Below, one piece after another: positions 9,056-38,119 of a stretch of 64,000 nt of DNA. Each line of letters opens with the position of its first letter. The stretch's first letter is position 1. Position numbers and translations under genes: made by a program. Source of the DNA: an uncultured Planctomycetia bacterium (GTDB taxonomy: Bacteria; Omnitrophota; Gorgyraeia; VGKH01; JBHPFN01); assembly GCA_964406665.1 (NCBI GenBank), contig CAYOSQ010000005.1:21929-85928 (forward strand), written 5' to 3'. The notes beneath the pieces were generated by a model, which was not told where the DNA came from, did no database searches, and saw nothing but the letters and a program-made list of their open reading frames with translations.

Positions 9056-9261
9056 TTTTTCCTCCCAATAGAGTTTATTTCATTTAGTAGTGTTATTATA
9101 TAATAAATAATAATTATTACTATTATTTTTTCCTAAAAATATAAAAGATAACGCTTCCTTTATTTTCTCCACACCCCTTGAAAAGAGTCTATATTATGCT
9201 TTACTATATTATAGATAGACATATCCGAAAATTTCCTTTAGAATAAAGGAGACCTGTAGCT

Positions 9262-9360
9262 AAATTATTGGCAGGGGCAAACTTAGGGAAACCTAAGGAC
9301 GCAAAGTTTCGGGCCTAAAGAGAAGGATTCCAATGGCAGCCGAGCGTACCGAAAACGTGG
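9262..9360 (+). promoter_or_regulatory. c-di-GMP-I (GEMM) riboswitch aptamer
   Basis: Sequence 'GGCAGGGGCAAACUUAGGGAAACCUAAGGACGCAAAGUUUCGGGCCUAAAG...GCAGCCGAGCGUACCGA' matches the GEMM-I consensus nearly position by position. Matching blocks: GGGCAAAC, GNRA-capped P2 hairpin CUUAGG-GAAA-CCUAAG, GGACGCAAAG, CGGGCCUAAA, CAGCCG...UACCGA (compare the Vibrio Vc2 aptamer). Confidence 0.8.
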
Positions 9361-9385
9361 GAAAAATTATAAAAAATCTTTTAGA

Positions 9386-9416
9386 AGATTTAGCGCGTAA
9401 GTCTAAATTTTTTACT
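9386..9416 (+). terminator. Candidate riboswitch expression-platform terminator
   Basis: AGATTTAG-cgcgtaagt-CTAAATTT hairpin followed by a T-run. An overlapping alternative hairpin AATCTT/AAGATT sits immediately upstream (mutually exclusive pairing). Confidence 0.3.
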
Positions 9417-9474
9417 CTGTTTCTTTTTGGGAGCAGAGTTTTTATTTTGGCGAGAATTAAAAAAGGGGGAAGCA

Positions 9475-10776
9475 ATGTTTAGAAGAAAAAGAAGCAATAA
9501 TTCAGGTATATCTTTGGTAGAAATTTTGGTTACTGTTTTTATTGTTGTATTGCTATTATCTACAGCGGTAACAACACTTGTCAGAGGAGCTAGGTTAAGA
9601 GAGGTAGCTGATCAAAAGACAAGGGCAATATTAGATGGGCAAAGTGTTTTTGAAGCGATGCGCGAAATTGCTCAAAATGCTGGAATAAATGATTTGTACA
9701 GGTGCGGCGCATCTTTTCGTGCAAATGCATATGTTGATTTGAATCAAGTTTTAGGCGGTGCGTCACTTTTAGATGAGCAAATACGTATTTTTTATCCCAG
9801 TGGTGTTACGGCACGTCCATTGCATTGTAGGTTGCAGATTAGCTGGACAGATTTTCGCGGTCAAACCGTTGCAGAAACAATAGAAACGAAATTTTGGGAA
9901 TTGGTTGCAGTAACTCCTGATAATGGAAGCTGTGGCACCTGCTTCCTCGCCGGCACCCCTATCCTTATGGCTGATGGCTCAACTAAGGATATTGAAACAA
10001 TTAAGGTAGGAGATACTGTAATAGCCTTTGATCAAGAATCTGGTAAGAATAAATCTGATGAGGTAGTTGAGACATTCATTCATGAAGAAGATAGCTATCT
10101 TTTAATCAATAATCGCATTAAGGCAACATCCAACCACCCTGTATTTCATAAAGGAAGATGGGTAGATATCGGATTGCTTAACATAGGTGATGAATTAACT
10201 AAGGTAGATGGTTCTAAAGAAAAGATCACCAGCATAGAAAAGATCAAAGAACCTGTAATGGTATACAACCTTGAGGTTAACCCTTATCATACATATTATG
10301 CTGATAACATATTAGCTCATAATAAGGGCTGTCTATTACCAGGCACAACTATACTTATGGCTGATGGCACTAACAAGTTTATTGAAAATATAGTTACCGG
10401 GGATAAAGTAACCTCTTATGATGAAGAATCTAAGACCAAGTTAAAAGATACAGTTAAAGAAGTATTCATGCATGAGGTACAAGGATACCTGATAATCAAT
10501 GATAGCATTAAAGTAACAGCAGAACACCCCTTCTTCTCTAATGGTATATGGGTTAGAGCAAAAGATCTTAAAGAAGGAGATATATTACTTACTCAAGAAG
10601 GTAAAGAAGAAGCTATTACCAGCATAAAAGCTGTTGATAAGAAGATCGTCGTTTACAACATTGAAGTAAACCCATATCACAACTACTTTGCTAATGGATA
10701 TCTGGTGCATAATAAAAGTTTGCCACAGGTACCTGTTCCACCACCAGATCCACCAGGTGGAGGATATGGGAATTAG
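9475..10776 (+). CDS. Type IV pilin-like (pseudopilin) protein with two tandem C-terminal Hint / bacterial intein-like (BIL) domains
   Basis: RBS 'aaagggggaag'. Class III signal 'MFRRKRSNNSG|ISLVEILV' (Gly-1, Glu+5). A pilin globular region with a Cys pair follows. Then two ~135-aa repeats, each starting with Cys ('CFLAGTPILMADGS', 'CLLPGTTILMADGT'), containing TxxH ('TSNH', 'TAEH') and ending 'VNPYHxY...HN'. Pro-rich tail. Confidence 0.7.
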   Translation: MFRRKRSNNSGISLVEILVTVFIVVLLLSTAVTTLVRGARLREVADQKTRAILDGQSVFEAMREIAQNAGINDLYRCGASFRANAYVDLNQVLGGASLLDEQIRIFYPSGVTARPLHCRLQISWTDFRGQTVAETIETKFWELVAVTPDNGSCGTCFLAGTPILMADGSTKDIETIKVGDTVIAFDQESGKNKSDEVVETFIHEEDSYLLINNRIKATSNHPVFHKGRWVDIGLLNIGDELTKVDGSKEKITSIEKIKEPVMVYNLEVNPYHTYYADNILAHNKGCLLPGTTILMADGTNKFIENIVTGDKVTSYDEESKTKLKDTVKEVFMHEVQGYLIINDSIKVTAEHPFFSNGIWVRAKDLKEGDILLTQEGKEEAITSIKAVDKKIVVYNIEVNPYHNYFANGYLVHNKSLPQVPVPPPDPPGGGYGN

Positions 10777-10816: not shown

Positions 10817-11356
10817 TTGGAGATGGTTATGAGATTTATGTATACAACAAAAAAAGGATTTACTTTCATGGAAACTTTAGTTGCTACCTTGGTTACCACT
10901 GTTATGTCTGCAGTCGTGATAACCACGATAGTTTGTTTAATGAATTTCTTTTTTGGGGAAGTTGCCAATGCTGAACTAAAACGGAAGGCTCACCAGTCAT
11001 TATCAACAATTATCCAGGATTTAAGAACTGCTGAGCCTGATGGAGCTAATGGTATTGATGTTTTAAATGATGGTGATAACAATAAGATTACTGCACGACT
11101 TGCAGGTGGTTGGGATGCTAATGGTTTTCTTGTGTATTCTACTGATGATACTCATTATTGGTTAGATGGAGATGAACTGGTTAAAGACAATATTGATACT
11201 GGAGAACGTAGAGTTCTCTGTAATCTTGCTTCAAGATTTAACTGTACAGAATATGCTGAAGGTCATTATTCTATGACCTTAATTTTAACTAAGGATACTG
11301 TGTTGAAAACAATTACTTATACTGCTACTGAAAACTTTGGTGTAAGAAATGATTAG
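10817..11356 (+). CDS. Prepilin-type N-terminal cleavage/methylation domain protein (minor pilin-like)
   Basis: 'KKG|FTFMETLVATLV' class III signal with Glu+5 followed by a hydrophobic helix. Start could be at one of the in-frame Met codons 10817-10838. Confidence 0.6.
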   Translation: MEMVMRFMYTTKKGFTFMETLVATLVTTVMSAVVITTIVCLMNFFFGEVANAELKRKAHQSLSTIIQDLRTAEPDGANGIDVLNDGDNNKITARLAGGWDANGFLVYSTDDTHYWLDGDELVKDNIDTGERRVLCNLASRFNCTEYAEGHYSMTLILTKDTVLKTITYTATENFGVRND

Positions 11357-11371
11357 TTTATAATGCAAAAT

Positions 11372-11567
11372 TTGAAAGGGTAGTTAAAATGCTAGCTATG
11401 AGATTACGCAAAAATGGACTTGCTATGATATTGAGTTTGGTGCTGACACTTGTTGTGTCTTGGGTAACAGTACCTATAATCATGACAGCTTTAGGGCATA
11501 CTCAAAATTCCAAAATAACAACCACTGCAATTGAAGCTAGAGAGGTAGCTGAAGCCGGAATAGCTGA
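11372..11567 (+). repeat. 196-bp direct repeat (RBS + 5' coding end), copy 1; partner at 13254..13449
   Basis: Identical to 13254..13449 except for 1 mismatch (11546 t vs c). The bodies downstream are only about 50% identical at protein level. Confidence 0.9.
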
Positions 11568-13207
11568 GGATTAAGGACGGCTTTACTAATAATTCTCTTC
11601 CTGCCAACTTTCCTAAAAACCCTAGTGAAACCGGCTCTAGTTTTTCTTATAATATCTGGCCAGGTGGAGAAGCCTTTCCAGTAGGAAGTGGTTCTGAATA
11701 TTCAGTAAATGTAGAATTAACCTTGGCTACTAATGACTTCGTTGAAGGAATAGGTGGAAACGGAGTGTATCGCTATATTTTAACCTCTAGCGGTACTGTC
11801 CCAACTATGGGTGGAGAGGTTAAGAAAACTGTTCAGGCAGGAGTAACATTTGATTATTTCTTTGGTGAGAATGTTAGGATGTGCGAAACTGACGAAGGTC
11901 CAGATTGCACAAGAGATCTAGGACATTCTTATTTCAATAATCAAAAGTCAATTATTCATTTAGATACAACTAACATAGCTGAGGGACGCTATCTTCGTCC
12001 AGGCAGATATAACCTATCATATTTCGGAAGGTATGGAGAAGGTCAGGGACCGGGTGCTGAGGAGGACCATGCTCGTCAAAGTGCTGAGGACCTTGTGCTT
12101 CTTTTTGATGAATATAGATTAGAGTTTCCAGAATGGCGGGATGCTAACGGTGATCACCTCGGACGCGATCCAGGAGGTGGAGTGCAGTATGAAGAATTTT
12201 TAGTTGACTACAATTTACAGGATCATAACGAACAATTTTTTCAGTATATAGATGAAAATGGTACAAATAACGAAGACAGCCCACCCTTCAATTTTGAGGT
12301 TTTAAGCCGTGATCCAGAAAACGAAGATGATGTGTTTATCGCAGAATTGAACTGCAGATTTAATTCTTCGCAATCAGCCGGCTGTGAAGACGATCTTGAT
12401 TTAGAACCTGGTGCACCCTGTACCCAATTTTGTGATGCTACTGAAGCAGCATTTGGAAGTGGTTCTTGGCCAGATTATCAGGAAGCATGTATGAACGCTT
12501 GCTATAGAAACAGTAGTGAGGTTTCATTTTCTTTTCAAGATGTTCATCCTGATTCAGAGGCGCATGTTCGTTGCTCGACTCCTGATGTATGCTTGAGACA
12601 TTGCTCTCATAACTATCAGTGGAATTATTATGATTCAACATGTCGTCAGCAGTGCGATACTACACATGGTTTTCTCCCTAGCAGAAAACAGCCCCAGGTG
12701 TGGATGCAATGTATGGTAGACTGCACTAATATTGAAGAATCTTTTGTTGCAAGTGAGTGTAATCAGCTATGTGATAATCCAGATTTATGTTTTGATTACT
12801 TTGCAGGAGATTATCAGCGTTATGCTAGAACCGATGATCCCCAGCAAGGTTTTCCTGGAGCACCAATACAGTTAAATTCTGAATGCTTTCAATTGTGTTC
12901 AGGAGTAACTAATATTTGGGGTTGTCGTGAGAGATGTGACAAAAAATTCTTTAGACGAGACACAACAGGAGATATTGTTATTTCTGCAATGAATAGAGTT
13001 GTTAAGGATAAATATGGCAAGTTTTATTGGCATGATGAAGACGATGATAATTCTTGTCATTATCCGCCTTGCGAACCTGCAACTGGTGGAAGTGTACATT
13101 TTGGTGATGGTACTTCACTTGAAATAGGTTTTGTTCTGAATATAGAGCAAGATCAAAGAATTGTAATAGTAGATTTTCAGTGGTTAGAAGTTGGTGGGGA
13201 TTATTAG
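11389..13207 (+). pseudogene. PilX_N-type large cysteine-rich pseudopilin-like protein, frameshifted paralog of 13271..15112
   Basis: N-terminal 62 codons are nearly identical to the downstream gene. An 11-nt deletion relative to copy 2 at about 11567 produces a stop ('GIAED*'). Homology continues in another frame (ORF 11723..13207, TTG as first codon), including all CX3C motifs. Confidence 0.55.
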
Positions 13208-13253: not shown

Positions 13254-13449
13254 TTGAAAGGGTAGTTAAAATGCTAGCTATGAGATTACGCAAAAATGGA
13301 CTTGCTATGATATTGAGTTTGGTGCTGACACTTGTTGTGTCTTGGGTAACAGTACCTATAATCATGACAGCTTTAGGGCATACTCAAAATTCCAAAATAA
13401 CAACCACTGCAATTGAAGCTAGAGAGGCAGCTGAAGCCGGAATAGCTGA
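13254..13449 (+). repeat. 196-bp direct repeat, copy 2
   Basis: See 11372..11567. Confidence 0.9.
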
Positions 13450-15112
13450 AGCCTTGATGTGGATTAAGAATGGTTTTACTTATAATACTCTTCCTGCCAA
13501 CTTTCCCAAAAACCCATCCGAAGTCGGCCCTGGCTTTGCTTACGATATCTGGCCAGGTGGAGAAGCCTTTCCTGCAGGAGGAGATAATAAGTATGCTGTA
13601 AATGTAGAATTAACCTTGGCTACTAATAATTTCATTGAAGGAGTAGATGGAAATGGAGAGTATCGCTATATTCTAACCTCTAGCGGTACTGTTCCGACTC
13701 TAGGTGGAGAAATAGAAAAAACTGTTCAGGCAGCAGTAACTTTTGATTATTATTATGGTGATGATATCGATATTTGTACAGTAGGTTCAGGACAAGACTG
13801 CACTAGAGATTTAGGTTATGAATATGTAAATGATAGAAAGCCGATAATTCATCTTGATACAACTAATGAAGCAGAAGGTCGTTATGTGCGTCCTGGTTTT
13901 TATAGCATAAGCTATAACGGTGAGTATGATATTGATCAAGGAGCCGGAGCAGAAACAACTGGACCTGATAGAGAATATGCTATGTATGGTTCAGAAAATA
14001 TGGTTGTATATCTTGATGAAGCAGCTCTTCTTTTTCCTGAGTGGAGAGATTTAGATGGAAATGGACGTGCTTCTTATGGTGGAGAGATTAGTCCTGAAGA
14101 ATTTCTTGTAAAGCCATGGTTGCAAGATTATACGGTTCATTTGTTTGAAAACATTGATGCAAATGGTACAAATGACGACCCTCCATTTAATTTTGAGGTT
14201 ATTGAAAGGGATCCTGAGAATCCTGAAGATAGGTTTATAATTGAATTATTTTGCGAGTCTGATAGCCTCCCAATAGGAAGTTGTTCCGGAGACCTTGATC
14301 TTGAGTCAGGTTCTACATGTTCCAATTTCTGTGAAGCAGTAGAGGATGCATATACAACCTTGGCATGGCCAGACTATGAAGCAGCATGTATGGCTGCCTG
14401 TGGAAGAAATGTTCTTGTAGAATATTCTTTTCAAGATGAACATCCAGATTCAGAGGCTAATGTTCGCTGTGGTGACAGTCAAATATGTTTGATTTATTGC
14501 GCCCACAGCTATCAATGGAATTATTACGATTCTTATTGTCGTCAAATATGTGATGTACATTATAATTTTGATCCTAATGCTCCTAATTATGGTCTTAGGC
14601 AGTCTCGAGATTGGAATGAGTGCATGGTTGATTGCTCAGATTTTATTTATGTAACTCCGGGATTCGAGTGTCAAAATTGGTGCGATGATCATGAGTCTTG
14701 TATGGATTTCTTTAGTGAAGAATATCAGATGAATGCGACAGAAGACAATCCAGCTCAATTTATTCCTGCAGTTGATCCAAGACAATTCATGTCGCAATGC
14801 GATAGAATGTGTAAAAGTGTAGATAATATTGGAGAATGCCGCAGCAGCTGCGATAGAAGATTTTTCCGTCAAGATGTTACAGGCGATATTGTTATAACTT
14901 TAATGAATAAATTGGCTAAAGAGAAACGTAAGAGGTTTCATTGGAATTCAGCAGACGATAATAGCTATGATTGTGAGTGGCCATGTGAACCAATAACTGC
15001 AGGTAGCGTTCATTTCGGAGATGCTGAGGGTACGGCTTTTGAGCTTCAGATAAATGATGATCTTAGAATAATTTTGAAGGATTTTCAGTGGATAGAAATA
15101 CCAAATGAATAA
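13271..15112 (+). CDS. PilX_N-domain pseudopilin-like protein with large cysteine-rich C-terminal region (putative pilus-tip/adhesin component)
   Basis: 'RLRKNG|LAMILSLVLTLVV' prepilin-like signal lacking Glu+5 (as in GspK/PilX), then 'AIEAREAAEAGIAEA' typical of PilX_N. Nine CX3C motifs (CSNFC, CMAAC, CLIYC, CRQIC, CMVDC, CQNWC, CDRMC, CRSSC, CEWPC). RBS 'gaaagggtag'. Confidence 0.65.
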   Translation: MLAMRLRKNGLAMILSLVLTLVVSWVTVPIIMTALGHTQNSKITTTAIEAREAAEAGIAEALMWIKNGFTYNTLPANFPKNPSEVGPGFAYDIWPGGEAFPAGGDNKYAVNVELTLATNNFIEGVDGNGEYRYILTSSGTVPTLGGEIEKTVQAAVTFDYYYGDDIDICTVGSGQDCTRDLGYEYVNDRKPIIHLDTTNEAEGRYVRPGFYSISYNGEYDIDQGAGAETTGPDREYAMYGSENMVVYLDEAALLFPEWRDLDGNGRASYGGEISPEEFLVKPWLQDYTVHLFENIDANGTNDDPPFNFEVIERDPENPEDRFIIELFCESDSLPIGSCSGDLDLESGSTCSNFCEAVEDAYTTLAWPDYEAACMAACGRNVLVEYSFQDEHPDSEANVRCGDSQICLIYCAHSYQWNYYDSYCRQICDVHYNFDPNAPNYGLRQSRDWNECMVDCSDFIYVTPGFECQNWCDDHESCMDFFSEEYQMNATEDNPAQFIPAVDPRQFMSQCDRMCKSVDNIGECRSSCDRRFFRQDVTGDIVITLMNKLAKEKRKRFHWNSADDNSYDCEWPCEPITAGSVHFGDAEGTAFELQINDDLRIILKDFQWIEIPNE

Positions 15113-15139: not shown

Positions 15140-15173
15140 AGCGTTTTGACATGTTGTCAAAACGCTTTTTTTT
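15140..15173 (+). terminator. Strong rho-independent terminator ending the pilin-like operon
   Basis: Perfect hairpin AGCGTTTTGACA-tg-TGTCAAAACGCT followed by TTTTTTT. Confidence 0.8.
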
Positions 15174-15174
15174 G

Positions 15175-15202
15175 TTGACTAAACAAATAGTTTTGATAGA
15201 AT
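15175..15202 (+). promoter_or_regulatory. Sigma70-type promoter for etfBA
   Basis: TTGACT - 16 nt - TAGAAT immediately upstream of etfB. Confidence 0.45.
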
Positions 15203-34978: not shown

Positions 34979-35905
34979 ATGGATAAAACATTTAAAAGAT
35001 TTATAACACTTCCTGTAGTTGAGTTTACATTTTTCAGTATCTTAGGATTATTTTTCTGGTTTAGTCAAAAAGAGCAGAATATCTTACCTTTAATTATTTT
35101 CATTTATATTGCAGTGTTTGTACCAGGTGGAATGCTGCTTTATGCTTTTTTGCCGTCACAAAAGAAGAATATAGGTAGAAGGTTTACTTATATCATGGCA
35201 GGATTGCTTCTTTTTCTCGAGATCGGAATTTTAGGTAGACAAAACCTTCAGTTGGAAGGTTTATTTTTTACGCTACTTTCTGGTTTTTTTTCTGCAGCTC
35301 TGTTGCATTATTGTATAGCTAAGATTATTGGTCCTATAATTTTAAACAGGGCTTGGTGCGGCTGGGGTTGTTGGACAATGATGATCTTAGATTTACTTCC
35401 TTATAAAGAGAGCAGCGGTCGCCTTAAAGGAAAATGGGGATTCTTAAGATATCTTCATTTTATCGCAAGCCTGATTCTTGTAGTATGGTTCTGGAACACA
35501 TTTAGATATTCAATCCCTAAAGAAAACTGGGGCATGATAGGATTATACTGGTTTCTTATCGGAAATGCTCTGTATTACGCCTTGGGTATCATCCTGGCAA
35601 TAATTCTTAAGGATAATCGGGCTTTTTGTAAATATGCCTGTCCCATAACTGTCTTTCTTAAGCTATCCAGCATATTCTCTTTACTTAAGATAAAAACTGA
35701 CAAAGACTCTTGCCAGGGATGTCAGCAGTGTATGAAAGCCTGTCCTATGGATATACGTATACCCGAATACACTAAGTTAGGTACAAGGGTGCTTTCTAGT
35801 GAATGTACACTTTGTCTGAAATGCATAAACGCCTGCCCAAATAAAGCCCTTAAGGTTTCTGTTGGATTCGACATAGGAGGGAAGGATTTTTTGAATGAAA
35901 AGTAG
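34979..35905 (+). CDS. NapH/MauN-like membrane polyferredoxin (2x[4Fe-4S]), paralog 1
   Basis: Four or more TM helices. 'RAWCGWGCW' (NapH-type CxxxC box). Two ferredoxin motifs 'CQGCQQCMKACP' and 'CTLCLKCINACP'. Confidence 0.7.
   Translation: MDKTFKRFITLPVVEFTFFSILGLFFWFSQKEQNILPLIIFIYIAVFVPGGMLLYAFLPSQKKNIGRRFTYIMAGLLLFLEIGILGRQNLQLEGLFFTLLSGFFSAALLHYCIAKIIGPIILNRAWCGWGCWTMMILDLLPYKESSGRLKGKWGFLRYLHFIASLILVVWFWNTFRYSIPKENWGMIGLYWFLIGNALYYALGIILAIILKDNRAFCKYACPITVFLKLSSIFSLLKIKTDKDSCQGCQQCMKACPMDIRIPEYTKLGTRVLSSECTLCLKCINACPNKALKVSVGFDIGGKDFLNEK
35353..35899 (+). repeat. 547-bp perfect direct repeat, copy 1 (period 913 bp); partner at 36266..36812
   Basis: Exact nucleotide identity across the 3' halves of the two polyferredoxin genes. 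Confidence 0.95.
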
Positions 35906-36845
35906 AACTTCTTTTTTAAATCACTGGCTTGTTGCTCCCTTAATGATAATTTCGTTCTTTTTTACTATTGCAATCTTTCTTTGGATATCTGAAGGTATTT
36001 TTTCATTGCTTATATTTTCCACAGGTATATTTGTTGTCTCAGGTGCTATTTTGTATATAAAATTGCCTGAAACAAAGAAGTATCTTGCCCGTAGGATTTC
36101 TTTTTTCGCGGTAGGCATGTCGCTTTTCTTCGGCGTTGGTATCTTAGCTCAGGAGAACTTACAGCTTGAGGGATTTTTCTTCTCTATCTTAGGGGGTCTT
36201 TATCCTATGGCTATGATACATTATATGATTGGTAAAATATTTGGTACTATTATTCTACAGAGAGGTTGGTGCGGCTGGGGTTGTTGGACAATGATGATCT
36301 TAGATTTACTTCCTTATAAAGAGAGCAGCGGTCGCCTTAAAGGAAAATGGGGATTCTTAAGATATCTTCATTTTATCGCAAGCCTGATTCTTGTAGTATG
36401 GTTCTGGAACACATTTAGATATTCAATCCCTAAAGAAAACTGGGGCATGATAGGATTATACTGGTTTCTTATCGGAAATGCTCTGTATTACGCCTTGGGT
36501 ATCATCCTGGCAATAATTCTTAAGGATAATCGGGCTTTTTGTAAATATGCCTGTCCCATAACTGTCTTTCTTAAGCTATCCAGCATATTCTCTTTACTTA
36601 AGATAAAAACTGACAAAGACTCTTGCCAGGGATGTCAGCAGTGTATGAAAGCCTGTCCTATGGATATACGTATACCCGAATACACTAAGTTAGGTACAAG
36701 GGTGCTTTCTAGTGAATGTACACTTTGTCTGAAATGCATAAACGCCTGCCCAAATAAAGCCCTTAAGGTTTCTGTTGGATTCGACATAGGAGGGAAGGAT
36801 TTTTTGAATGAACGGGAGCCTGAATTCGATTCCCAATCTTCTTAG
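35895..36845 (+). CDS. NapH/MauN-like membrane polyferredoxin, paralog 2
   Basis: Same architecture. The N-terminal half is about 40% identical to paralog 1; the C-terminal half is nucleotide-identical. Start ATG overlaps the stop of paralog 1. Confidence 0.7.
   Translation: MKSRTSFLNHWLVAPLMIISFFFTIAIFLWISEGIFSLLIFSTGIFVVSGAILYIKLPETKKYLARRISFFAVGMSLFFGVGILAQENLQLEGFFFSILGGLYPMAMIHYMIGKIFGTIILQRGWCGWGCWTMMILDLLPYKESSGRLKGKWGFLRYLHFIASLILVVWFWNTFRYSIPKENWGMIGLYWFLIGNALYYALGIILAIILKDNRAFCKYACPITVFLKLSSIFSLLKIKTDKDSCQGCQQCMKACPMDIRIPEYTKLGTRVLSSECTLCLKCINACPNKALKVSVGFDIGGKDFLNEREPEFDSQSS
36266..36812 (+). repeat. 547-bp perfect direct repeat, copy 2
   Basis: See 35353..35899. Confidence 0.95.
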
Positions 36846-36925: not shown

Positions 36926-36998
36926 GGGCCGATAGTTCAGTTGGGAGAACGCCTGGTTCGCAATCAGGAGGTCGGGGGTTCAACTCCCCCTCGGTCCA
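36926..36998 (+). tRNA. tRNA-Ala (anticodon CGC)
   Basis: Cloverleaf: acceptor GGGCCGA/TCGGTCC with G3:U70 Ala identity pair, D-stem GTTC/GAAC, anticodon stem CCTGG/TCAGG with loop TTCGCAA, T-stem GGGGG/CCCCC with loop TTCAACT. CCA is not encoded. Confidence 0.85.
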
Positions 36999-37021
36999 CA
37001 AATTTAGGAAAAAATAGTAAA

Positions 37022-38119
37022 ATGAACAAAAAAAGCTTGATAACTCTCTTCTTGTTAATTATTTTAAGTGTAACGTTATTTTTCTCTAATGCTTATGTTT
37101 CTTCTAATCCTTTGAAGGAAGCGATGTATTATAAGAAACTTGAGGATAAAAAAGTTAATTGTCAACTTTGCCCTCGTAGGTGTTTAATCCAAAATAACAA
37201 AAGAGGATTTTGTGGGGTAAGAGAAAATAAGGAGGGGATTCTTTATTCTCTTGTTTACGGAGAACCCTGTGCAGTACATGTTGACCCCATTGAAAAAAAA
37301 CCACTTTTTCATTTTTTCCCCAAAAGCAAAGCGTTTTCAATCGCTACAGTTGGTTGTAATCTTAAGTGTAAATTTTGTCAGAACTGGGAGATTTCCCAGG
37401 CTTCTCCCGGAGACGTTAGAACTTACAAATTATCTCCTGAAGAAATCGTTGAGCATGCTATTAAGTCAGGATCGCGCTCCATTGCATATACGTATACTGA
37501 GCCCACGATTTTTTATGAATACATGATTGATATTGCTAAGATTGCTAAAAGAAGAGGCGTAAAAAATGTTATGCATTCTGCTGGACACATAAGTGAAGAA
37601 CCCTTAAGGCAACTGTGTAAATATCTTGATGCTGCTAATATTGATTTGAAGGGCTTTACTGAGGATTATTATAGTGAGATGTCTCTGGGAAGTCTGGAAT
37701 CTGTGCTTAAAACTTTAAAGATTTTGGATGAAGAAGGTGTTTGGGTTGAAATAACTAATCTTGTGGTACCCGGATTAAACGATGATCCCGAACTTATTAA
37801 GGCAATGAGTATTTGGATAAAAGATAATTTGGGTCCTGAGACTCCGCTACACTTTTCTAGATTCTGGCCGATGTATAAGCTAAAGAATCTTTCACCGACA
37901 CCTGTTAGTACTATTGAACGGGCAAGGAAAATTGCAATGGAGAATGGTCTTAAATTTGTATATATAGGAAATGTAGTAGGGCATAAAGCAGAGGATACGT
38001 TTTGCCCGGTTTGTGGTAAATCAATAATTGAACGCTCAGGTTATTCAATAAACAAAATAAATATAAAAGATGGAAAGTGCGTATTTTGCAATGCGGAGGT
38101 CCCTGGTGTCTGGAAATAA
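37022..38119 (+). CDS. AmmeMemoRadiSam system radical SAM enzyme with extra N-terminal signal/anchor segment
   Basis: 'VNCQLCPRRCLI...RGFCGVRE' N-terminal Cys box, 'DPIEKKPLFHF', radical SAM 'GCNLKCKFCQNWEIS'. The N-terminal 30 aa 'MNKKSLITLFLLIILSVTLFFSNA' are hydrophobic. The ORF-track start at 36941 is rejected because it overlaps the tRNA. Confidence 0.85.
   Translation: MNKKSLITLFLLIILSVTLFFSNAYVSSNPLKEAMYYKKLEDKKVNCQLCPRRCLIQNNKRGFCGVRENKEGILYSLVYGEPCAVHVDPIEKKPLFHFFPKSKAFSIATVGCNLKCKFCQNWEISQASPGDVRTYKLSPEEIVEHAIKSGSRSIAYTYTEPTIFYEYMIDIAKIAKRRGVKNVMHSAGHISEEPLRQLCKYLDAANIDLKGFTEDYYSEMSLGSLESVLKTLKILDEEGVWVEITNLVVPGLNDDPELIKAMSIWIKDNLGPETPLHFSRFWPMYKLKNLSPTPVSTIERARKIAMENGLKFVYIGNVVGHKAEDTFCPVCGKSIIERSGYSINKINIKDGKCVFCNAEVPGVWK

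Follow-up and report, generated by a model that had tools for sequence, protein, structure and literature searches.

What do two protein-splicing-type domains do inside a subunit of a type IV filament? The question is raised by a gene in a stretch of 64,000 nucleotides (nt) from an uncultured bacterium that GTDB places among the Omnitrophota (contig CAYOSQ010000005.1 of assembly GCA_964406665.1; "the window" denotes this whole stretch), which encodes the precursor of a type IV pseudopilin carrying two Hint domains in tandem. In answer, a known kind of domain is here extended to a new class of host protein, the type IV pseudopilin, and the reading that we favour, with moderate confidence, is that two putative bacterial intein-like (BIL) domains of the A-type, standing head to tail, were inserted between a complete pilin module and its native tail and would excise themselves after export.

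The precursor, to which all residue numbers refer, has four parts, a class III signal, a GspI/PilV-like module, two tandem Hints and a Pro-rich tail of 20 amino acids (aa), which are laid out as follows.

9465-9472, + strand: ribosome-binding-site-like GGGGGAAG, directly 5' of the ATG of the pilin-Hint gene
9475..10776, + strand: pseudopilin precursor with two Hint domains; intact open reading frame (ORF), 433 aa, 48.1 kDa
9475..9507, + strand: prepilin leader of class III, aa 1-11, ending in Gly11, read from the sequence
9508..9903, + strand: small minor-pseudopilin module, complete, GspI/PilV-like, aa 12-143; alpha1 12-69, beta strands 102-106, 116-125 and 131-140
9904..9939, + strand: linker ELVAVTPDNGSCGT, aa 144-155; of low confidence in the AlphaFold model (53-67 on its per-residue confidence score, pLDDT)
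9940..10323, + strand: Hint domain 1, aa 156-283; Cys156, TSNH 218-221, His282-Asn283; PT-HINT match
10324..10329, + strand: spacer Lys284-Gly285, two residues, Lys284 being the +1 residue of Hint 1
10330..10713, + strand: Hint domain 2, aa 286-413; Cys286, TAEH 348-351, His412-Asn413; PT-HINT match
10714..10773, + strand: C-extein, a Pro-rich tail at the C-terminus, aa 414-433, KSLPQVPVPPPDPPGGGYGN

Independent assemblies from JGI, ENA and NCBI contain an identical protein, the contigs reaching 108 kb, so that it is no assembly artefact.

The Hint domains and the pseudopilin that carries them

The PT-HINT family (PF07591) of Pfam matches two stretches of the protein with E=2.5e-42 and a score of 144.8 bits, where 27.7 is the cut-off. 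Further Pfam families score above their cut-offs as well, namely Intein_splicing, Hom_end_hint, Vint, Hint and Hint_2, and NCBIfam adds the N- and C-terminal splicing regions of inteins, so that the HMMER comparison with the Pfam Hint families, which a preliminary description of the locus had proposed, came out in favour of Hint domains. Each domain is 128 aa long, with 50% identity between the two, and the alignment of Hints shows Cys1, TxxH and His-Asn to be invariant in the two copies and across relatives. The best sequence match in the Protein Data Bank (PDB) is 2LWY, an A-type BIL of Clostridium thermocellum, with E=1.8e-15 over the whole domain. Pfam, the Hint alignment and the PDB match thus agree, well outside what chance would give, with the preliminary description in its central claim, a type IV pseudopilin followed by two tandem Hint domains with all catalytic motifs; its further remark that both catalytic cysteines follow Gly-Thr holds for the first, but the second follows Lys-Gly. 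Neither a homing endonuclease nor a remnant of one was found in the 128-aa Hints, which have no insertion between blocks B and F, and a search across the window for further Hint copies found none beyond the two.

The residue that follows the terminal His-Asn is Lys in both domains (Lys284 and Lys414, read directly, as had already been noted), and not the Cys, Ser or Thr that a canonical intein has at +1. Lys stands at +1 or +2 in 50/52 mini-Hints, and the classical PT-HINTs among the matches have Ser or Thr at +1. Judged by sequence, the Hints belong to the PT-HINT/A-type BIL class, and they display each of the sequence features by which an A-type BIL is told: Cys1, TxxH, His-Asn with a non-nucleophilic +1 residue, mini size, an exported and variable host, and 2LWY as the closest structure.

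As for the host protein, its N-terminus (MFRRKRSNNSG followed by ISLVEILVTVFIVVLLL) has a short basic leader and then a hydrophobic helix, with a predicted prepilin-peptidase site, G/ISLVE, that places Gly at -1 and Glu16 at +5; this is the canonical class III signal that had been recognized there before. An AlphaFold model of residues 1-155, made with 28 remote homologs (pLDDT 88), has the pilin fold, a long N-terminal alpha1 helix packed on an antiparallel sheet of three strands. A model of the whole protein, made with an alignment of 8 sequences, gave pLDDT values of about 80 for the Hints and below 50 for the pilin part, and is unusable for fold comparison. Family profiles stay short of a name: N_methyl of Pfam scores 18.1 bits on the protein, under its gathering score of 21.2, and the NCBIfam matches to XpsI, ComGE and PilV are marginal and all far under their cut-offs, the GspI family profile XpsI reaching 20 bits against a cut-off of 150 (E=5e-4). 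With the pilin module alone, a word-indexed homolog search returned one identical fragment only; the family was found by an exhaustive HMMER search with residues 1-155, which yielded 33 relatives, nearly all of them stand-alone proteins of 125-170 aa that cover the query from about 4 to 138. Ten of these relatives were scanned for N_methyl, which matched 8/10 at E<0.01 and reached the gathering score or more in 6/10, and a motif, L..E.I.V.YP.G...PL.v.V.W.d..GR....T..T.R, is common to the relatives of the module. By its modelled fold and by its context, the host protein is a GspI/PilV-like pseudopilin that lies under the cut-off of every named family. The pair of pilin cysteines reported in the preliminary description exists, but there are three Cys residues (77, 118 and 153), and the pair that is conserved in an ortholog is 77/153, not 77/118.

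Searched over its full length, the pilin-Hint protein has 89 relatives at E<=1e-3, mostly from Candidatus Omnitrophota where the source is named, and its nearest genome loci lie in metagenome-assembled genomes (MAGs) and single-amplified genomes of Omnitrophota. The search for pilins and Hints occurring together, which had likewise been suggested beforehand, turned up pilin-Hint fusions with an N-terminal class III signal in 25/89 relatives. Such fusions have been annotated automatically in a few MAGs, and the names that NCBI gives to the relatives include "polymorphic toxin-type HINT domain-containing protein".

Hint-bearing pseudopilins fall into three families, the window type, the P0004 type (ii) and the GspJ/PilW-like family B (iii). 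Members of the P0004 type have one or two Hints and a Pro-rich tail similar to that of the window protein, and one of them, P0005, is encoded within an operon that also comprises response regulators, PilZ, T2SSE, T2SSF, a major pilin, PilX-like and PilW-like pseudopilins and PilM. Family-B proteins have one to three Hints and a C-flank of 70-100 aa ending in ...S.V.LRN, and their genes are arranged as repeated modules of a pseudopilin and a protein of about 750-830 aa. The two Hints of the window (Hint 1/Hint 2) are closest to those of family B (90%/88% to P0002 and 71%/55% to P0003, with 61%/50% to family (ii)), from which it follows that the tandem pair has moved between unrelated pseudopilin hosts.

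The same class of domain occurs in further settings. The Lys+1 mini-Hint also ends huge surface proteins of Omnitrophota, of 1350-2600 aa (L008, L009, L011, L014), the tail after it being 12-15 aa long in 3/4 of these large proteins and about 505 aa in L014, and a protein of Saccharibacteria with a class III signal (L022) has a terminal Hint with a tail of 4 aa. Family-B inserts (L003 8993-10186; P0041, P0024, P0009, P0003) carry a Cys-rich segment of the CxNGxCExGE...CxxDC type before the Hint and a conserved segment of about 17 aa (..L..FF....AFAD..) after the Lys, both of which are missing from the Hint-free paralog at the L003 locus.

Relatives that lack Hints show how the domains sit in their hosts. 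A cassette at another locus (L005) is syntenic with that of the window, with I-like, J-like and K-like proteins in the same order and full-length identities to the window proteins of 34% for the J-like one and 29-35% for the K-like ones (three large proteins in L005). Its first gene encodes an I-like protein of 168 aa, P0091, which has no Hint, and the window protein minus both of its Hints (175 aa) is collinear with P0091 from end to end at 35% identity. Both Cys77 and Cys153 fall within the alignment, as does the tail rich in Pro (window protein, SCGT-KSLPQVPVPPPDPPGGG; P0091, SCEATGGVIPELPEPPGPQ). Cys153, kept in P0091, lies within the linker ELVAVTPDNGSCGT, the last residue of which, 155, is position -1 of Hint 1, and a tail resembling KSLPQVPVPPPDPPGGGYGN ends P0091 as well as the family-A relatives, the motif K-x-[IL]-P-x-[IV]-P...PGG-x-G being common to pilin modules that are otherwise very divergent. 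At L003, GspJ/PilW-like paralogs of 218 aa (Hint-free) and 397 aa (Hint-bearing) are 58% identical over residues 1-147 and 48% identical over the last 63, and 8 residues of the short paralog are replaced in the long one by a block of 190 aa, made up of a Cys-rich linker, a Hint and a segment of about 31 aa; the Hint interrupts the pilin fold here, because the Hint-free paralog aligns on both sides of the block. In P0091 and the short L003 paralog alike, parts that flank a Hint elsewhere are contiguous, as is the case for canonical inteins, and among related pseudopilins the number of Hints ranges from 0 to 3 with the flanks conserved. P0091 is collinear without Hints, the fold of family-B pseudopilins is interrupted by them, and some paralogs lack them altogether; the domains thus behave in these alignments as intein-like insertions.

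Excision, re-joining and the rival readings

In the reading that we favour, the chemistry is drawn from the family, whose A-type BILs make a thioester at Cys1, sever their C-terminus through cyclisation of Asn and leave the thioester open to attack by the freed amine of the C-flank or by water (PMC5874633, PMC7765530), and is set upon the observed domain identities, insertion pattern, conservation and regulation. The precursor would enter the inner membrane by way of its class III signal and the Hints would fold on the periplasmic side, where each would turn the peptide bond before its first residue (Cys156 or Cys286) into a thioester, and Asn283 and Asn413 would cyclise, cutting the bond before Lys284 and Lys414. 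By the splicing route, the C-flank, which now begins with Lys, would attack the thioester through its liberated amino group (aminolysis), giving an 18.0-kDa pilin with its tail; by the cleavage route, water would attack the thioester, giving a 15.8-kDa pilin without it. Both routes would convert the 48.1-kDa precursor into a pseudopilin of ordinary size, able to associate with its J-like and K-like partners from the genes downstream. The cassette as a whole would be expressed under the control of a riboswitch of the cyclic di-GMP-I (c-di-GMP-I) class, and the Hint-coding DNA would act as a portable block of homology by which Hint alleles, and possibly C-terminal parts, are swapped between pseudopilin genes.

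Evidence on the activity of the domains comes from a second allele of Hint 2. The same locus in another sample (L087) shows 100% identity to the window on either side of Hint 2 and 54 mismatches inside it, and the two alleles have 26 synonymous against 16 nonsynonymous codon differences, the catalytic residues being unchanged; because the synonymous differences outnumber the nonsynonymous ones, Hint 2 appears to be under purifying selection. The self-processing chemistry is likely to be active, because the catalytic residues are invariant, the Lys is nearly so and the differences between the Hint 2 alleles are mostly synonymous. The domains might instead be decaying selfish insertions, unreactive and merely tolerated, as could be supposed from the missing homing endonuclease, the copy number of 0-3 and hosts that are non-essential and fast-evolving. 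We regard such a decay as very unlikely, given that the two copies, like nearly all relatives, have kept the full set of catalytic residues, that the Hints are far better conserved than the pilins hosting them (50-70% identity between proteins for the Hints, about 25-35% for the pilins) and that the allele differences are of the kind just described.

If the Hints are active, the flanks could be re-joined or merely cut apart. A-type BILs are reportedly able both to splice and to cleave without a +1 nucleophile, a result that goes by the names of Dassa et al. in J Biol Chem of 2004. Two reviews concur that the C-terminal His-Asn of A-type BILs is commonly followed by a non-nucleophilic residue (PMC7765530 and PMC5874633) and conflict over the outcome, one stating that A-type BILs without a +1 nucleophile splice completely and often cleave at the C-terminus (PMC5874633), the other that they cleave yet cannot ligate (PMC7765530). 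The preliminary description had argued that Lys at +1 makes splicing unlikely; this argument does not stand, in view of the splicing reported for A-type BILs that lack a +1 nucleophile and of the Hints' place as insertions. Excision followed by re-joining fits the pattern of insertion no worse than simple cleavage does, and we lean towards at least partial re-joining of the flanks, because the tail is conserved, because the Hint-free ortholog has it too and because the C-flank of family B is part of the pilin fold.

The thioester could also be resolved from outside. In a Hedgehog-like transfer, an idea that goes back to the preliminary description, the Thr155~Cys156 thioester would be attacked by an external nucleophile, such as a lipid or glycan, a lysine on a partner (for instance one of the K-like proteins) or a molecule of a host or prey cell, so that a pilus-tip subunit became attached covalently. 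The conserved catalytic Cys and TxxH would serve such a reaction; many surface proteins of Omnitrophota end in one Hint and a very short tail, a layout like that of Hedgehog; GspI-type pseudopilins are found at filament tips (PMC8179133), and Omnitrophota have been proposed to be host-dependent (PMC10066038). We nevertheless consider the transfer unlikely. Only 20 residues follow the Hints, with no region for the recognition of a sterol or other acceptor, the terminal His-Asn and the Lys are strictly conserved although a pure N-terminal transfer has no need of them, and the tail is conserved and recurs in the ortholog without Hints, P0091; no candidate acceptor was identified, and no finding argues for a specific one.

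A further alternative is that the Hints stay in place as a displayed C-terminal spacer or binding domain, partial or triggered processing then giving rise to mixed variants at the tip. BIL processing is said to have been proposed, by Amitai et al. in 2003, as a source of greater protein variability. A capacity to raise variability, as summarised in PMC7765530, would suit the retention of the domains, and bulky C-terminal modules are widespread in modular pilins and tolerated at filament tips (PMC8179133). Within the P0004-type family, moreover, the same Gly-rich linker bears either Hints or an unrelated module of about 110 aa: the relatives P0125-P0141, which lack a Hint, have after the same FGAGSGGG linker an unannotated, beta-rich module ending in ...SYSW, which matches no Pfam family. 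Retention nonetheless seems to us improbable, in view of the catalytic residues, all of which are kept under purifying selection, of the up to three Hints (about 400 aa) that lie within the family-B fold, quite unlike a designed display module, and of the Hint-free ortholog, which manages without any module. We also know of no binding function for Hint folds of this class, which counts against it as well.

The second allele of Hint 2 bears on the exchange of DNA too. The Hint 2 of L087 is 99.5% identical to the one found in two contigs, L006 (P0001) and L088 (P0146), where it is joined to a different pseudopilin C-terminus. Compared with window positions 9306-10725, these two contigs, which come from two samples, have no nucleotide difference in the upstream stretch, in the pilin module or in Hint 1; exactly at the border of Hint 1 and Hint 2 they switch to the other Hint 2 allele, followed by a C-terminus of the GspJ/PilW type (family B) and a family-B large protein. 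The family-B C-terminal domain of P0001, which is 94% identical to the window protein, was sought across the window and not found. Either L006 and L088 are true recombinants, or the repeated Hint 2 led to chimeric assembly; the mosaic of Hint 2 sequences between strains indicates gene conversion at the Hint DNA.

The mosaic resembles the swapping of C-terminal cassettes in polymorphic toxins (PMC4287609), and one may ask whether the Hints do what they do in MafB, CdiA and Rhs proteins, freeing the 20-aa Pro-rich peptide to serve as effector or signal. Pretoxin HINT is indeed the best Pfam family, and NCBI names relatives after polymorphic toxins; the tail, however, belongs to the pilin in the Hint-free ortholog, and the classical PT-HINTs among the matches have Ser or Thr at +1, so that we hold this processing to be extremely improbable. 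This polymorphic-toxin reading was considered and rejected, there being no toxin domain after the Hints and no immunity-like gene downstream, where the next gene is a pseudopilin.

Several points weigh against self-excision with re-joining. We infer cleavage and splicing of this clade's Lys+1 Hints by analogy with the chemistry of the family, for which, as said, one of the two disagreeing reviews allows cleavage and denies ligation. The likeness of the tails of P0091 and the window protein is one of low complexity (Pro-rich sequence) and comes from one ortholog at 35% identity, and the module of about 110 aa in the P0004-type family looks like module swapping and not like a removable insertion. 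In the non-pilin proteins of Omnitrophota that have a terminal Hint and a tail of 4-15 aa, re-joining seems pointless. The hybrid contigs L006 and L088 could be assembly chimeras across the repeated Hint 2, and genes for filament machinery were not found within the 64-kb window. Finally, excision alone does not account for the near-invariant Lys. This residue might be an acceptor nucleophile, its epsilon-amino group, or an amine of a partner or host cell, attacking the backbone thioester to give an isopeptide product, a proposal that we rate as decidedly doubtful. None of the readings set out above, be it excision, transfer, retention, toxin-like processing or decay, explains the invariant Lys, which could be a clue to an isopeptide-forming variant.

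The cassette, its riboswitch and the neighbouring genes

The pilin-Hint gene opens a cassette of four genes, in which it is followed by a J-like pseudopilin and by two paralogous, Cys-rich genes of the K/PilX-like kind. The features of the cassette beyond the pilin-Hint gene are the following.

9216..9244, + strand: candidate promoter, TAGACA-17-TAGAAT; 10/12 in a consensus scan, a pattern match alone
9266..9353, + strand: c-di-GMP-I riboswitch aptamer, RF01051, full-length; 68.2 bits against a gathering score of 35, E=3e-12
9414..9449, + strand: terminator-like hairpin, the likely expression platform, in the interval from aptamer to start codon; stem of 11 pairs, then the U-run TTTTTATTTTG
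10817..11356, + strand: GspJ/PilW-like pseudopilin without a Hint, about 175 aa; likely start ATG 10829, GFTFMETL N-terminus, weak N_methyl match
11389..13207, + strand: GspK/PilX-like large Cys-rich protein, copy 1; frameshift near 11570, from which it is a pseudogene or holds a sequencing error
13271..15112, + strand: GspK/PilX-like large Cys-rich protein, copy 2, 613 aa; pseudopilin-like hydrophobic N-terminus, many CxxxC motifs
15140..15176, + strand: terminator-like hairpin ending the cassette; stem of 12 pairs, then a T run

The RF01051 aptamer thus lies in the 5' leader of the cassette, 122 nt 5' of the pilin-Hint start codon, and identifies a riboswitch there; the hairpin at 9414-9449 is present in both the minimum-free-energy and the centroid fold of the leader. 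RF01051 is also found upstream of related cassettes, at L003 4450-4532 with 50.5 bits and at L005 7772-7908 with 33.4 bits, just under the gathering score. A weak match of 23 bits lies at L004 5885-5948, and the riboswitch precedes pseudopilin cassettes with or without Hints.

GspI, GspJ and GspK form a tip complex. The large proteins downstream, which had been described as CX3C adhesin-like, are Cys-rich (CxxxC) as stated, but are better called GspK/PilX-like partners of minor pseudopilins; copy 2 matched no family of Pfam or NCBIfam, and its full-length identity to the three large proteins of L005 is 29-33%. The first 440 nt or so of copies 1 and 2 are 89% identical and the proteins are elsewhere 51% identical, which suggests gene conversion between the copies. 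At L087, the J-like pseudopilin is followed by a gene that matches the 5' end of copy 2 with 100% identity, the frameshifted copy 1 being absent or replaced.

The window as a whole is chromosomal DNA of about 36% G+C, with dnaG, rpoD, recA, alaS, hisD, secDF, mfd and similar genes. Further along, two adjacent and very similar genes (34979-35905 and 35895-36845; 308 and 316 aa), with ferredoxin-type 4Fe-4S domains at matching positions, appear to be a tandem duplication. A tRNA gene at 36926-36998 (+ strand; Rfam RF00005, 67.1 bits) overlaps the TTG listed at 36941 as the start of a radical SAM ORF (36941-38119), the true start of which is probably further downstream.

Known systems and what the fusion may mean

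The BIL domain of C. thermocellum that has been studied has Ala at +1. This domain, BIL4 (2LWY; Amitai 2003, Dassa 2004, Aranko 2013), is otherwise much like the Hints of the window, being a mini Hint of about 130-140 aa without an endonuclease, with Cys1, TxxH, His-Asn and a non-nucleophilic +1 residue, and sited in variable regions of secreted, non-conserved proteins; the window differs from it in its predicted host, a type IV pseudopilin, in its tandem copies (2, and up to 3 in relatives) and in the near-invariance of Lys. With the PT-HINTs of class 1 MafB, CdiA and Rhs proteins the window Hints share the Pfam family, a position at the border of a constant N-terminal and an exchangeable C-terminal part, and recombination at the Hint-coding DNA (compare PMC4287609), but there is no toxin domain or immunity gene, the +1 residue is Lys and not Ser or Thr, and the C-flank consists of a tail of 20 aa or, among relatives, of the pilin's own final strands. 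Canonical mini-inteins are likewise inserted between parts that are contiguous elsewhere and have blocks A, B, F and G; the window Hints, in contrast to them, lack Cys, Ser or Thr at +1, an endonuclease and an essential, conserved host site, and are periplasmic or extracellular. The Hog domain of Hedgehog may serve as an analogue, in that an exported protein bears a Hint at its C-terminal end, the functional product is its N-terminal part and the junction would be a thioester; it differs in that the window protein is bacterial, has no sterol-recognition region, retains the terminal His-Asn and is without an identified acceptor.

Among the filament proteins, modular type IV pilins such as PilB of Streptococcus sanguinis (PMC8179133) are alike in joining a small pilin to a C-terminal graft through a short linker, yet the graft of the window protein is predicted to be a self-processing domain and not an adhesion domain, and is probably removed and not displayed. 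GspI/XcpV/EpsI and PilV resemble the host module in size, class III signal, alpha1 helix with a three-stranded sheet and adjacent J-like and K-like partners, but sequence similarity to them is marginal, and the window encodes neither type II secretion nor pilus machinery nearby. Full-text searches of the literature for a pilin with a BIL, Hint or intein, together with two papers on Omnitrophota genomes, gave no prior description; the architecture IPR012902-PF07591 (N_methyl-PF07591) occurs once, uncommented, in Dataset S1 of the study of modular pilins (PMC8179133), and with this single list entry the earlier impression that pilin-Hint fusions are uncharacterised holds good.

Protein-splicing-type domains are unstudied in subunits of type IV filaments. 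If the Hints self-excise in the periplasm, the maturation of pilins gains an autocatalytic step besides cleavage by the prepilin peptidase, and with one to three tandem Hints several products would be possible from one gene. To our knowledge, Omnitrophota have no cultured, genetically tractable members. The Hint-free and Hint-bearing orthologs and paralogs form a natural before-and-after set for the splicing of A-type BILs in their native hosts, and the 128-aa Lys+1 Hints are candidate tools for cysteine-free protein ligation. The mosaic suggests that conserved Hint DNA aids the shuffling of pilin C-termini, as has been proposed for MafB toxins, and the c-di-GMP riboswitch offers a testable regulatory input to the surface filaments of Omnitrophota. 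If the isopeptide-forming variant acted in trans, a pilus-tip subunit would be coupled covalently to its target, and a type IV filament of host-dependent nanobacteria would then have an enzyme-free analogue of the attachment mediated by sortases or thioester domains.

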